Of a stretch of DNA of 64,000 nucleotides, positions 51,633-55,949 are shown one piece after another (positions within the stretch are counted from its first letter, which is position 1; each line of letters opens with the position of its first letter). Source of the stretch: Escherichia phage REP4. Both the position numbers and the translations under genes were made by a program. The notes below the pieces were generated by a model that saw only the letters and a program-made list of their open reading frames with translations, ran no database searches and was not told where the DNA came from. The stretch lies in sequence record OQ174503.1; one strand, given 5' to 3'.

Positions 51633-51923
51633 TCAGTCTCCAATTTAATGTTCATAATTCTAGCGTATGATTGTGCCATCTCCGCGCCTCGTTCTATACA
51701 TTCAAAATCAGAAGAACACGGGTCATTTTTTATAAGTCGTTCGCATAAAACTATAGAACTGTTCAGATGATTCTACGCTTTTATTTTCAAAAAGCATATA
51801 AACGTGTCTAATACCAGATTCCATAAATTTATCAAAATGAGGATCGACATTCGCTTCAATTGGCGGAGATAAAGCAAACGCTAATCCTAGCATGGCAAAT
51901 AGTGCCGTTGCTTTTAAGGCCAT
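51629..51923 (-). pseudogene. rI: rI (lysis-inhibition antiholin) disrupted by +1 frameshift in an A6 run
   Basis: N-terminal 66 aa match RI signal-anchor, then stop after TATAAAAAATGA; next frame continues [32 protein letters not shown] to a stop at 51629. Confidence 0.6.
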
Positions 51924-52781: not shown

Positions 52782-52967
52782 TTAAAGCGTATTCACATAA
52801 GCTATTAATTCGTTTTCTTTCTTATCAAACCGGTCAGCAAATTCTTCCTGTTGTTCGGGAGATAGCGGGCCGTATTCATCATAAAAGGTGTTTGCTTCTA
52901 TATGCTCATCTAGAAGTTCATGGATAAGCTCAAACAATTTATCTTTTTGTTCTTTACTCAGACTCAT
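52782..52967 (-). CDS. Hypothetical acidic protein (61 aa)
   Basis: ORF track. Confidence 0.5.
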   Translation of the reverse strand: MSLSKEQKDKLFELIHELLDEHIEANTFYDEYGPLSPEQQEEFADRFDKKENELIAYVNTL

Positions 52968-53133
52968 ATATTAATTTCCAGAAGTTTTAAAATAATTCGC
53001 TTTTGCTTAAATATTTCCATAGTTAAATGATCAGTATCTTTTTGACCAATTCCGATGGCAAAACCTTTATTAACAGCGAGTTCAATTAAATTATCAAGCT
53101 CACGTAACACTTCATATTGTAACTCAGAACTAT

Positions 53134-53340
53134 TCATTTTGGTTTACCTTCTTTAACAAAATCGGGATAAGGATAAAATCCTGAATAAAATCCTTCACCT
53201 TTATGATTAATGCATCCTTTATTAGAGCAATAGCACCAATAATCGAAATCACAAGCCATTTCATCATTGCATAAAGCAAAAACAACTGGCCATTTACACT
53301 TTTCACAATGTGCATTTTTAAGAATGCTAGTTTGGCTCAT
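53134..53340 (-). CDS. Cys-rich small protein (68 aa from ATG at 53340)
   Basis: CEKCKW...CNDEMACDFDYWCYCSNKGC; chosen over overlapping hydrophobic frame. Confidence 0.45.
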   Translation of the reverse strand: MSQTSILKNAHCEKCKWPVVFALCNDEMACDFDYWCYCSNKGCINHKGEGFYSGFYPYPDFVKEGKPK

Positions 53341-53549
53341 AACCGTGTAACCTTTAAGCAATATTCTTCTACATGCTGTTTACGACCTTTCTTATCAATA
53401 AAGGTATATTCAACGAATGTTCCAATATAGTCTTTATCTACATCATGTGGACTATTAATTGGGCATTTAGTACGGCAAATGCGTTCCCATTGACGAATAA
53501 TTTCCACTTTGTTTTTAGGATCAAACGGATGCGGGTAATGTGCTTTCAT
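53337..53549 (-). CDS. Hypothetical protein (70 aa)
   Basis: ORF track. Confidence 0.5.
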   Translation of the reverse strand: MKAHYPHPFDPKNKVEIIRQWERICRTKCPINSPHDVDKDYIGTFVEYTFIDKKGRKQHVEEYCLKVTRL

Positions 53550-54000
53550 AATCCACCACTATTAAATCAATATCAGGAGTAAACATGTCGATTAATTTAG
53601 AAACCTTATCCCAATCGCCGCCAGCAATACCGCAACCTATGCGTGGAATATAAATTACTGGTTTAAACAAAAGGGTCTCTGCCTGTAGATTTAATTCTAT
53701 CATGCAGTTTACTAAAGCACCATAATCAAGATTAGGACCCGGTTCGTATTGCGTATAAAGGTTATAGCATATACCAAATCCTGTAGGACTGTGTTTAAAA
53801 ACAATAGACATATCGCCTAATTTATCACGAGAACCGTACTCGGTAGTGGTTTTATCTATTTCTAAAATTTTGGGATAGGCTTTTGCTAATTGACCTGCTA
53901 CGCCAGAGCCCATTGTGTGGAAGCAATTGCACCCGTGCGCAATAATATTACCTTGAAGAAATAGGGCGACAATATCGCCCTTGATATATTTTACAATCAT
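53521..54000 (-). CDS. Macro-domain protein (159 aa)
   Basis: GNIIAHGCNCFHTMGSGVAGQL and IPRIGCGIAGGDW resemble macro-domain ADP-ribose-binding motifs. Confidence 0.55.
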   Translation of the reverse strand: MIVKYIKGDIVALFLQGNIIAHGCNCFHTMGSGVAGQLAKAYPKILEIDKTTTEYGSRDKLGDMSIVFKHSPTGFGICYNLYTQYEPGPNLDYGALVNCMIELNLQAETLLFKPVIYIPRIGCGIAGGDWDKVSKLIDMFTPDIDLIVVDYESTLPASV

Positions 54001-54338
54001 CTAGTACTCAATCCTCGATTATAAGAATCTACCAAACGGTCAACCATTGAATGACAAGCGGCTTTATCTTTCTCCTCCGCAACTGAACATTCTAAGGTAT
54101 TCCACTTTTTAGCATATCGTTTTAATAAAGTATCATTTTTGTATCTGCTTGATTTATCTCTTTCTCCGTCTTTATATGCATATATTAATTTCTGCGCAAA
54201 TTCAGCTTGGCATGCTTTATTTTTCCCGCAATAATCCGCGGCAGTACGGTTTACATACTCTCTAATTTCAGTATATGATGTATTTGCTAACGCAGAAAAT
54301 GAAATTAATCCTATACATAAAACCAAAATTTTAGTCAT
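53997..54338 (-). CDS. Secreted Cys-containing protein (113 aa)
   Basis: Signal peptide MTKILVLCIGLISFSALA. Confidence 0.5.
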   Translation of the reverse strand: MTKILVLCIGLISFSALANTSYTEIREYVNRTAADYCGKNKACQAEFAQKLIYAYKDGERDKSSRYKNDTLLKRYAKKWNTLECSVAEEKDKAACHSMVDRLVDSYNRGLSTR

Positions 54339-54876
54339 TTACTATTTCCAAAAGTTTATTATTTTTAAGGTAGTTAGCCTTTTCTAGGACTTCAGAAGCA
54401 TATTTAGAACCTGCTTTAACATTCCATCCCGAATTATAAGAGGATATTGCCTTTCTTATATCACCCTTATGTATATTTAACCAATAAGAAAGTTCAATGT
54501 ACGCCCAGGAAGCTGAATTGGACCGTTTATTCAACATTCTTTTTATTTCGGCATCGGTCATATTATAACCAAGTTCCTTAATTCTTGCTCGCATGGTCGG
54601 CAAATAATTTTGGAACATTCCGTAGGCATGATGCTTTGGTTTAGATTTTAAATTAACTCCGGCAGAGCTTTCTTGCCATAAAATAGCAGCCATTATATGA
54701 CCTAATCCACTCTTGTGGATATTTTTGTGTGTTTTATATTTTCCATCCTTAGAAAATTGTTCCCCGAATTGATACGCGTAACGCATGTTATCGAGTTGGA
54801 CATTACTGAAAGTATGCTCGGAGCTATGTGCCATCATAGAAATGGCCAATAGACCAGCGAGTAGTGCTTTTCTCAT
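54331..54876 (-). CDS. Secreted lytic-transglycosylase-like protein (181 aa)
   Basis: Signal peptide; motifs WQESS, YGMFQ, SYNSGW resemble SLT domain. Confidence 0.55.
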   Translation of the reverse strand: MRKALLAGLLAISMMAHSSEHTFSNVQLDNMRYAYQFGEQFSKDGKYKTHKNIHKSGLGHIMAAILWQESSAGVNLKSKPKHHAYGMFQNYLPTMRARIKELGYNMTDAEIKRMLNKRSNSASWAYIELSYWLNIHKGDIRKAISSYNSGWNVKAGSKYASEVLEKANYLKNNKLLEIVND

Positions 54877-54883
54877 GCTTACC

Positions 54884-55345
54884 TCATTGAGTTTTAATTA
54901 CTGCTTTAGAAGCCTTTCCTGGTAAACGACGACTGTTGATAATTGCCATCCTGCATTGAAGCGACGGGTCTTTGAACTTCGCATTAGGTTTACAAACTGT
55001 AAATCCAAGCCAAAGATTTCCATCGGTGATTTCTAAACGCCCAGGACGATATTCAACCCCATCAATAAAATCCTCGTCAATGTCAGGACGCGGAGGCATA
55101 CTTAGGAATTCATTAACTTCTAAAACATGGTCTTTTATTTTATGGAATAATTCAAAAACATATGTCTCATCAATCTCCCGTTGAATTGCGCGATCAAGAA
55201 GATGCTGAGAATATTTTAGATGAAACGATGAGACCCCTGCTGCTTTTGATGCCTCACGAATCTCATTGTTAATTTGACGAAACTCCGACTCAAAGTGACG
55301 ACGGAGCTTATTTCGACGGATAAAAACTTCTGTGTTGATAGTCAT
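54884..55345 (-). CDS. regB: Endoribonuclease RegB (153 aa)
   Basis: MTINTEVFIRRNKLRRHFESEFRQINNEIREASKAAG... as recalled for T4 RegB. Confidence 0.8.
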   Translation of the reverse strand: MTINTEVFIRRNKLRRHFESEFRQINNEIREASKAAGVSSFHLKYSQHLLDRAIQREIDETYVFELFHKIKDHVLEVNEFLSMPPRPDIDEDFIDGVEYRPGRLEITDGNLWLGFTVCKPNAKFKDPSLQCRMAIINSRRLPGKASKAVIKTQ

Positions 55346-55404
55346 GTTATTCTCCTCTTAACTGATAGAAAAATTATACCACAGTCAAGAGGAAAAGTAA
55401 ACAG

Positions 55405-55683
55405 TTATTCTTTAAATCTAATCAATTTATTCATAGACTTTGAAACTTCTGCACGAACCTCATGTAGGTTTTTAAGCTGTTCAAGACGCTGCTCATAGTA
55501 AGCAATTTCATCTTCTTCGAGACAGTCCTGTGAATCTTCTTTAAGATAACGTGCATAGTCCTGGAAAGCTTTACGGACTACTTCCTGGAAGTCATCAAGA
55601 CTTTGAATTTTCTTAGGAGCAACAGATACACGACGAGGGGCAGTATAATACTCATAACCAAACCCTGCGCTTAATTGAGCCAT
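55405..55683 (-). CDS. Hypothetical protein (92 aa from ATG at 55683)
   Basis: ORF track trimmed; GAGGAAA Shine-Dalgarno. Confidence 0.5.
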
Positions 55684-55949
55684 TAATATTTTTCCTCTGG
55701 TTGAAACACAGCACGACAAGCCCACATACTAGCTTCTTTGAGTTTCGTTTTAGCAATAGTTAACTGATCGATGCTTTCAGCATAATTCTTCGCGAATTCA
55801 TAGTCTTCACAATTATTTAGCACTTCCCAGAATTCGTCGTATAAAGCATCAAAGATAAGTCCTAAACGAACTTCAGCGTCTTTGATTGCATTCACTTTAC
55901 CGATTTTCTCTTCAGTATGGGGCTTATAACCTTTAATGTCTTCAATCAT
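55683..55949 (-). CDS. Hypothetical protein (88 aa from ATG at 55949); a vs.4/Acb2-like slot by position only
   Basis: ORF track trimmed; GAGGAAG Shine-Dalgarno; positional inference, not sequence-based. Confidence 0.45.

Follow-up and report, generated by a model that had tools for sequence, protein, structure and literature searches.

The 64,000-nucleotide stretch of Escherichia phage REP4 analysed here (sequence record OQ174503.1; hereafter the window) carries on its minus strand two overlapping open reading frames (ORFs), encoding proteins of 181 and 113 amino acids. They are the orthologues of two long-known, named T4 genes, vs.1 and vs. An earlier note on this DNA, made from the letters alone, had described them as a secreted lytic-transglycosylase-like protein and a secreted cysteine-containing partner; the signal-like N-terminus and the conserved cysteines of the partner stand, but its identity as Vs, the “valyl-tRNA synthetase modifier”, was missed. 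The window belongs to a Tequatrovirus, a T4-like phage; the 2 kb surrounding the pair are 98.6% identical to many Tequatrovirus genomes, with 719 phage records matching, and in the annotations of PP01 and T4 the same slots are occupied by vs.1 and vs, in the order regB-vs.1-vs-tk.4-tk.3 ... tk-rI.1-rI. The order regB-vs.1-vs-tk.4 is common to the window, T4, PP01, VR7, PM2 and a Klebsiella phage. In the window, 7 nucleotides lie between the regB stop and the vs.1 start, vs.1 and vs share 8 nucleotides, and the tk.4 start overlaps the vs stop by 4 (ATGA). The explanation of this locus that I favour, and consider fairly probable as a whole, is that the pair forms part of an early transcription unit, with Vs.1 as an exported transglycosylase and Vs as its exported companion.

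The window Vs.1 is at least 98.9% identical, over all 181 amino acids, to T4-group records (for example T4_ev240). T4 Vs.1 itself (NP_049725; PHROG 600) has the same length, the same motifs and the same slot between regB and vs, and nothing substantive differs between the two. It has no experimentally shown activity and appears in the T4 RefSeq record as “hypothetical protein”, while several other database records give “transglycosylase SLT domain-containing protein”. The similarity to SLT has been in print since 2006, and the gene pair was already known: Nolan et al. (2006; PMC1524935) found vs.1 conserved in six of the six T4-like genomes that they compared, with SLT matches at E-values of 0.012–0.74, corroborating earlier PSI-BLAST results for T4. 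A literature search returned no functional study of vs.1 beyond that paper and two omics supplements (PMC9697503, PMC11879866). Some Vs.1 homologues are mislabelled “endoribonuclease”, “RegB-like” or “site-specific RNA endonuclease”, as in Klebsiella phage Miro (L011, 1309..1950), apparently through carry-over from the neighbouring regB.

In an alignment of 36 Vs.1 homologues, reaching down to 41% identity, residues E69, G86, F88, Q89, N90, Y147, N148 and G150 are invariant, and S70 is nearly so. At ~30% identity, the homologues from a Felixounavirus and a Kuttervirus keep every one of these residues, and S70 is invariant there as well. The three SLT motifs quoted in the earlier note (WQESS, YGMFQ and SYNSGW) are thus present, conserved across both sets, and not a product of chance. 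Relative to the SLT consensus, the Vs.1 motifs carry F for M and S for A. No conserved second carboxylate follows E69 in the 36-sequence alignment, whereas goose-type lysozymes have aspartates in that role; because a single glutamate is invariant and no such second residue accompanies it, Vs.1 is, judging by its residues, more likely a lytic transglycosylase than a goose-type hydrolase.

At the level of whole-domain comparison, Vs.1 passes the Pfam SLT hidden Markov model (PF01464) that the earlier note had proposed as a check, with a marginal score (E=5.7e-5, 23.1 bits against a cut-off of 21.3, residues 61–154). Several homologues have a precomputed PF01464 match, and Vs.1 has weaker PHROG matches to SLT-containing tail lysins and endolysins. 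NCBIfam gave no match for it, and the best structure match obtained from sequence only was the C-terminal part of goose lysozyme, at a marginal E of 0.37. Since the sequence match to SLT is marginal, the family assignment rests on the motifs together with the predicted fold. The AlphaFold2 model (predicted local distance difference test, pLDDT, 84.8; predicted template-modelling score, pTM, 0.79) is of low confidence only at the signal peptide, in one loop and along the C-terminal tail, and shows a predicted lysozyme-like alpha-helical fold. Foldseek ranked MltD and Slt first for this model, with a probability of up to 0.99; the SLT fold, the lack of which the earlier note had named, along with a lack of muralytic activity, as counting against its proposal, is therefore what structure prediction returns.

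The Vs.1 precursor begins with MRKALLAGLLAISMMAHS, followed by SEH, and has two basic residues, a hydrophobic core of 12–13 residues and a small-x-small site, A-H-S. Signal peptides were sought with a scan for a basic n-region, a hydrophobic core of 7–15 residues and small residues at −3 and −1. All 36 homologues have the core and the small-x-small site; before the core stand one to three basic residues, with a single homologue lacking any, and the sequence of the segment drifts across the set while its tripartite pattern is kept, as in signal peptides. The segment also has low pLDDT and lies outside the predicted fold. The signal peptide that the earlier note attributed to Vs.1 is thus borne out, by pattern, in the window protein and in its relatives. 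The predicted mature protein, of ~163 amino acids, 18.8 kDa and an isoelectric point (pI) of 9.65, contains no cysteine, and in the window sequence its predicted N-terminal semi-tryptic peptide is SEHTFSNVQLDNMR.

Other assignments were considered for Vs.1 and set aside. A lipoprotein is rejected for lack of a cysteine. A signal-anchor-release (SAR) domain is uncleaved, weakly hydrophobic, ~18–20 residues long and rich in Gly, Ala and Ser, and SAR endolysins are expressed late with a pinholin; Vs.1 has a core of only 12–13 residues followed by the A-H-S site, is expressed early, and has no holin-type gene annotated nearby. Nor does Vs.1 fit a canonical phage endolysin, which is needed for lysis and is expressed late from inside or beside the lysis cassette: the vs.1 RNA is early, and the gene lies between regB and tk.

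Compared with the family 1 lytic transglycosylases (GH23, PF01464: Slt70 and MltE of E. coli, MltF and Slt of P. aeruginosa), to which structural alignments show 13–17% identity, Vs.1 has no superhelical, LysM or ABC-like modules, no lipid anchor, and the motif variant G-M-F-Q-N-Y-L-P. In its mature form it resembles small, exported “specialised” transglycosylases such as EtgA; VirB1, IpgF and P19 are further enzymes of this kind. However, specialised transglycosylases come encoded alongside a trans-envelope machine to which they are recruited, whereas vs.1 has no such machine next door, and none is known to require Vs.1. Lysozyme and effector inhibitor pairs (g-type lysozyme with PliG, Tse3 with Tsi3) offer the same concept of a muralytic enzyme with a small exported neighbour, and the enzyme halves of two such pairs are among the fold matches of Vs.1 (4g9s, 4luq). 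T4 Spackle with gp5 is another periplasmic enzyme-inhibitor pair. A comparison of the Vs model with known lysozyme and transglycosylase inhibitors (PliG, Ivy, MliC, Tsi3, Spackle) gave no fold match, only generic helical bundles, and, unlike in those inhibitor pairs, many phages carry vs.1 without vs.

The second protein, Vs, is 96.5% identical (tblastn) to T4 Vs (NP_049724; PHROG 1256; PF26829), its orthologue at the same position; PF26829 is precomputed on all homologues. The window protein has 113 amino acids and that of T4 115, the two-residue difference lying inside the signal-like region. Vs begins with MTKILVLCIGLISFSALA, followed by NT, so that the predicted mature N-terminal peptide is NTSYTEIR; in T4 proper the predicted cleavage site lies within ...SASASA/DTSYTEIR. 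The same scan finds the signal-like pattern in nine of nine Vs homologues and in the Vs of Acinetobacter phage Acj9, and across Tevenvirinae and Acinetobacter-phage homologues this N-terminal segment keeps its pattern while being poorly conserved in sequence. Residues C37, C43, C84 and C95 are invariant in every homologue found, and are in register between the T4-type and Acj9-type proteins at ~27% identity (hhalign E=7.8e-4). The predicted mature protein is of ~95 amino acids and 11.0 kDa, with a pI of 9.05 and four helices. In the AlphaFold2 model (pLDDT 74.8), residues 1–18 fall below 50 and lie outside the four-helix fold; C37 and C43 flank the first hairpin turn and C84 and C95 the second, a placement that suits two disulfide staples, probably C37-C43 and C84-C95. 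Vs as a lipoprotein is rejected, since the residues before Cys8, L-V-L, do not form a lipobox and Cys8 itself is not conserved.

The Vs annotation, which implies a cytoplasmic function, looks inconsistent with these exported-protein features: a signal-like N-terminus and invariant cysteine pairs argue against the cytoplasm, and the label “valyl-tRNA synthetase modifier” is doubtful for this reason. N-terminally His-tagged T4 Vs produced in the E. coli cytoplasm was insoluble and formed inclusion bodies (PMC8076793). The literature search did not reveal on what grounds this ORF was first linked to the vs mutation. Vs has no sequence match among solved structures, and only noise in NCBIfam and the local Pfam. 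Searched exhaustively with a Vs profile, 1.8 billion representative proteins yielded eight matches, all short and Vs-like, which makes this a tiny, phage-restricted family; neither bacterial relatives nor functional clues came to light. As a matter of nomenclature, many vs genes bear the label “valyl-tRNA synthetase”, a name that would make their product the enzyme and not its modifier.

Vs.1 homologues were found in 2051 phage records, from T4-like phages of Escherichia, Klebsiella, Aeromonas, Acinetobacter and Vibrio to Ackermannviridae and Felixounavirus. Outside the T4-like phages, vs.1 also sits in early-type neighbourhoods: a Felixounavirus has it by rIIA/rIIB and pnk, a Kuttervirus near gene 46. 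I inspected eight loci (T4, PP01, GADU22, VR7, PM2, a Klebsiella phage, Mosigvirus NBG1 and Acj9), and in all eight vs lies directly downstream of vs.1, with anything from an 8-nucleotide overlap to a 5-nucleotide gap. In Acj9 the pair persists though regB and tk.4 are absent. This conserved position directly after vs.1 suggests that Vs works with Vs.1 or regulates it, and a functional link between the two is plausible. The tight coupling that the earlier note drew between vs.1 and a second protein, one with a signal-like N-terminus and conserved cysteines, is upheld. In Aeromonas phage 44RR2.8t, which lacks vs, an unrelated ORF of 146 amino acids, ORF105c (L009, 2356..2796), lies between vs.1 and tk.4; it has a lipoprotein-like signal (MKKSIATLIAIGMYGC...), and in that phage Vs.1 may have it as an exported companion that is not homologous to Vs.

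Upstream of regB lies a T4-early-type promoter (Table 1), which on the consensus scan, and by analogy with the early promoters of T4, is the probable start of a regB-vs.1-vs-tk.4 transcript. The interval contains two minus-strand terminator-like hairpins, both within coding sequence, a number no higher than expected from shuffled sequence. From the tight gene overlaps, the upstream promoter, the confinement of hairpins to coding sequence and the early RNA in T4, I infer that vs.1 and vs are co-transcribed in the window. In T4, time-resolved omics lists both genes as early RNA and both products as middle-class proteins (PMC9697503, supplement), so both proteins are made during infection. The production early in infection that the earlier note assumed agrees with these data, which set the pair apart from the late lysis genes. 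Its description of an “otherwise early cytoplasmic gene block” fits the immediate surroundings, where regB, tk.4 (with a Macro domain) and tk flank the pair, but not rI, which encodes a periplasmic antiholin ~2 kb downstream. In a genome-wide CRISPRi-ART screen of T4, vs.1 came out as “Semi-Fit”, one of five T4 genes in that class whose function is purely unknown, and vs, regB and tk.4 as “Not Fit” (PMC11879866, supplement); the signal, a weak one that points to a mild fitness cost of knock-down, suggests that Vs.1 is not neutral in the laboratory.

In the favoured explanation, the early promoter would drive regB, vs.1, vs and tk.4 as one tightly packed transcription unit. The 181-residue Vs.1 precursor would leave the cytoplasm through the Sec pathway and lose its first 18 residues, giving a basic, cysteine-free, single-domain enzyme of ~18.8 kDa with a GH23 (goose-lysozyme/SLT) fold. 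In this enzyme Glu69, in the ES motif, would serve as the only acid/base, cutting the beta-1,4 bonds between N-acetylmuramic acid (MurNAc) and N-acetylglucosamine (MurNAc-beta-1,4-GlcNAc) and leaving 1,6-anhydro-MurNAc ends. As it would be exported without a holin from early infection, Vs.1 most likely cuts the sacculus in a limited, local fashion, as the small specialised transglycosylases do, and does not lyse the cell. Vs, with its start overlapping the vs.1 stop, would probably be exported too, as two helical hairpins each stapled by a disulfide (C37-C43 and C84-C95), and would work with Vs.1 or regulate it.

Several observations weigh against this explanation. The PF01464 score of Vs.1 is barely above the gathering threshold, and searches of solved structures, which include solved lytic transglycosylases, gave nothing significant with either the single sequence or the 36-sequence profile. 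Both signal peptides were judged by a simple n-/h-/c-region heuristic, not by a trained predictor. Vs records are fewer than those of Vs.1 (795 of T4 type and 361 of Acj9 type, against 2051); many phages thus have vs.1 without vs, and Vs is therefore not an obligatory partner. The CRISPRi-ART effect of vs.1 is weak, with a Kolmogorov-Smirnov (KS) p of ~0.1 (PMC11879866, supplement). Finally, Vs is reported to bind valyl-tRNA ligase from the host and to change its properties (Muller and Marchin 1975/1977, as relayed in the citing passages of PMC8076793). Binding of that kind belongs to the cytoplasm and contradicts a role in the periplasm.

As to its physiological role, Vs.1 may remodel the wall, protect against secondary phages or help in lysis, and a role in lysis is the least consistent with the timing of expression and with the dependence of T4 lysis on gpe. 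This protein is the T4 endolysin, and e mutants fail to lyse, so that Vs.1 alone is insufficient for lysis. It could still be an accessory or back-up endolysin that aids lysis at the end of infection, as in the “some role in cell lysis” proposed by Nolan et al. (2006; PMC1524935) and the annotation of a Felixounavirus homologue, with spanin genes ~1 kb downstream, as “putative lysin”. I hold this to be improbable, since vs.1 RNA is early and its protein of the middle class, not late (PMC9697503, supplement), and vs.1 sits in the early block from regB to tk and not by holin or endolysin genes. In addition, a strong lysin exported by Sec independently of a holin would lyse the cell prematurely. 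Protection of the infected cell by Vs.1, with or without Vs, whether through superinfection exclusion or through resistance to lysis from without, would fit an early-expressed, predicted periplasmic protein, and the T4 proteins Imm, Sp and RI share this compartment and timing. The conservation of the Vs.1 family in large virulent myoviruses of Gram-negative hosts is in keeping with such a role, as is the CRISPRi-ART screen, done at a multiplicity of infection of 10, in which imm is Fit for a population-level reason and vs.1 Semi-Fit (PMC11879866, supplement). Nevertheless, how cuts in glycan strands would stop an incoming phage is not obvious. Classical genetics credits the exclusion phenotypes to imm and sp, and no paper in the library searched links vs.1 to superinfection exclusion or wall remodelling, the two roles floated in the earlier note; overall I regard protection as unlikely. 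The only marginal sequence similarity to characterised SLT domains might also mean that Vs.1 is a catalytically dead peptidoglycan-binding protein or decoy. Here three phage families share, without variation, the catalytic glutamate and both substrate-binding motifs, and loss of activity usually goes with loss of catalytic or binding residues, which makes a dead enzyme very unlikely.

For Vs, the choice is between export and the function in its name. It may really be a cytoplasmic modifier of valyl-tRNA synthetase (ValRS), with an N-terminus that holds no working signal or gives only partial export, and with an adjacency to vs.1 that is functionally meaningless; T4 early genes are tightly packed whatever their function. 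The modifying factor is reportedly of ~10 kDa, close to the 11.0 kDa of Vs without its first 18 residues, although such a match at ~10–11 kDa would itself imply that a signal peptide had been removed. Classical biochemistry and genetics, to the extent that they are recounted in PMC8076793, tie modification of host ValRS to the vs locus, and vs is dispensable (Not Fit; PMC11879866, supplement), as the classical vs gene should be. On the other side, drifting signal-like N-termini with a kept pattern, together with four cysteines in register at ~27% identity, are the signature of exported disulfide proteins, residues 1–18 stand outside the predicted fold, and the adjacency to vs.1 survives in Acj9 despite different flanks. 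A cytoplasmic Vs is accordingly possible but doubtful in my estimate. I put forward, no less tentatively, that Vs is a Sec-exported, disulfide-stapled periplasmic protein acting with Vs.1, for instance as its regulator or inhibitor. The true ValRS modifier would then be another ORF of the rI-e interval, or ValRS binding would be secondary. In the interval to which vs was genetically mapped, vs.3 and vs.4 encode products of ~10 kDa.

If Vs is indeed exported and acts with Vs.1, vs.1-vs would form a module of T4-like phages that is conserved, early and periplasmic and concerns the cell wall. Vs.1 is among the most widely conserved uncharacterised, predicted exported proteins of large virulent myoviruses, and explaining why a phage would export a cell-wall cutter within minutes of infection would close a real gap in the biology of T4. 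The “valyl-tRNA synthetase modifier” annotation is carried by more than 1000 phage genomes, and is copied automatically into new ones, sometimes garbled to “valyl-tRNA synthetase”. Establishing where Vs is located would put right an assignment that has stood for decades, or else bring to light a protein with an unusual double location. The sole surprise for a T4 specialist would be a “valyl-tRNA synthetase modifier” that has the hallmarks of an exported protein and travels with vs.1.

Table 1. Features of the vs.1-vs locus, with positions in the window.
Feature	Positions	Strand	Basis
T4-early-type promoter upstream of regB, GTTTACT-N17-TATAAT, TG upstream of −10	55373..55401	-	Consensus scan, 10/12 matches plus TG extension
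regB (endoribonuclease), upstream gene	54884..55345	-	Pfam REGB_T4 E=1.4e-68; annotated regB in PP01 and T4; Shine-Dalgarno GAGGAG
vs.1, 181-residue precursor, predicted periplasmic GH23/SLT-type lytic transglycosylase	54331..54876	-	
Vs.1 signal peptide, residues 1–18 (MRKALLAGLLAISMMAHS), predicted cleavage after A-H-S	54823..54876	-	Heuristic, 36 homologues
Terminator-like hairpin within vs.1	54856..54843	-	
Glu69 codon (GAA) in W-Q-E-S-S, predicted single acid/base catalyst (ES motif)	54670..54672	-	Sequence; invariant
G86-M-F-Q-N90, counterpart of family 1 “GLMQ”	54607..54621	-	G86, F88, Q89, N90 invariant
Y147-N-S-G150, counterpart of “AYNxG”	54427..54438	-	Y147, N148, G150 invariant
vs, 113-residue precursor, “valyl-tRNA synthetase modifier”, here predicted exported	53997..54338	-	ORF; PHROG 1256 E=6.5e-40
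Vs signal-peptide-like segment, residues 1–18 (MTKILVLCIGLISFSALA), A-L-A site	54285..54338	-	Heuristic scan
tk.4 (Macro-domain protein), downstream gene	53521..54000	-	Pfam Macro E=1.4e-7; annotated tk.4 in PP01 and T4
Terminator-like hairpin within tk.4, just past the vs stop	53981..53963	-	

The surroundings of the pair gave some further observations. The ribosome-binding site of regB (window 55346..55372, minus strand) is GAGGAG and contains a GGAG motif. RegB cleaves this motif, and the site fits the known self-regulation of regB in T4. Further upstream, vs.3 (window 55405..55725, minus strand) has a GTG start and 106 amino acids in the mechanical ORF list, while its relatives are annotated with 92 amino acids from an internal ATG; its protein has a weak, sub-threshold Pfam match to Tex_N (E=0.002).

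Downstream, the small ORFs between tk and tk.4 (window 52782..53549) differ from those of T4 (L003, 2847..3426): the window phage and PP01 have tk.2, two extra small ORFs and tk.3, and lack tk.1, and this interval looks like a hotspot of small indels or replacements. In the lysis-inhibition gene rI (window 51723..51923, minus strand), an A-run near 51722..51727 has one extra A, with six here and five in T4 and PP01; the frame is shifted and the ORF ends after 66 amino acids, compared with 97. The best matches among 502 database relatives align over 360 nucleotides against the 361 of the query, and the extra base seems private among these. Either the phage is a rapid-lysis (r-type) mutant or the extra base is a sequencing error in the homopolymer.

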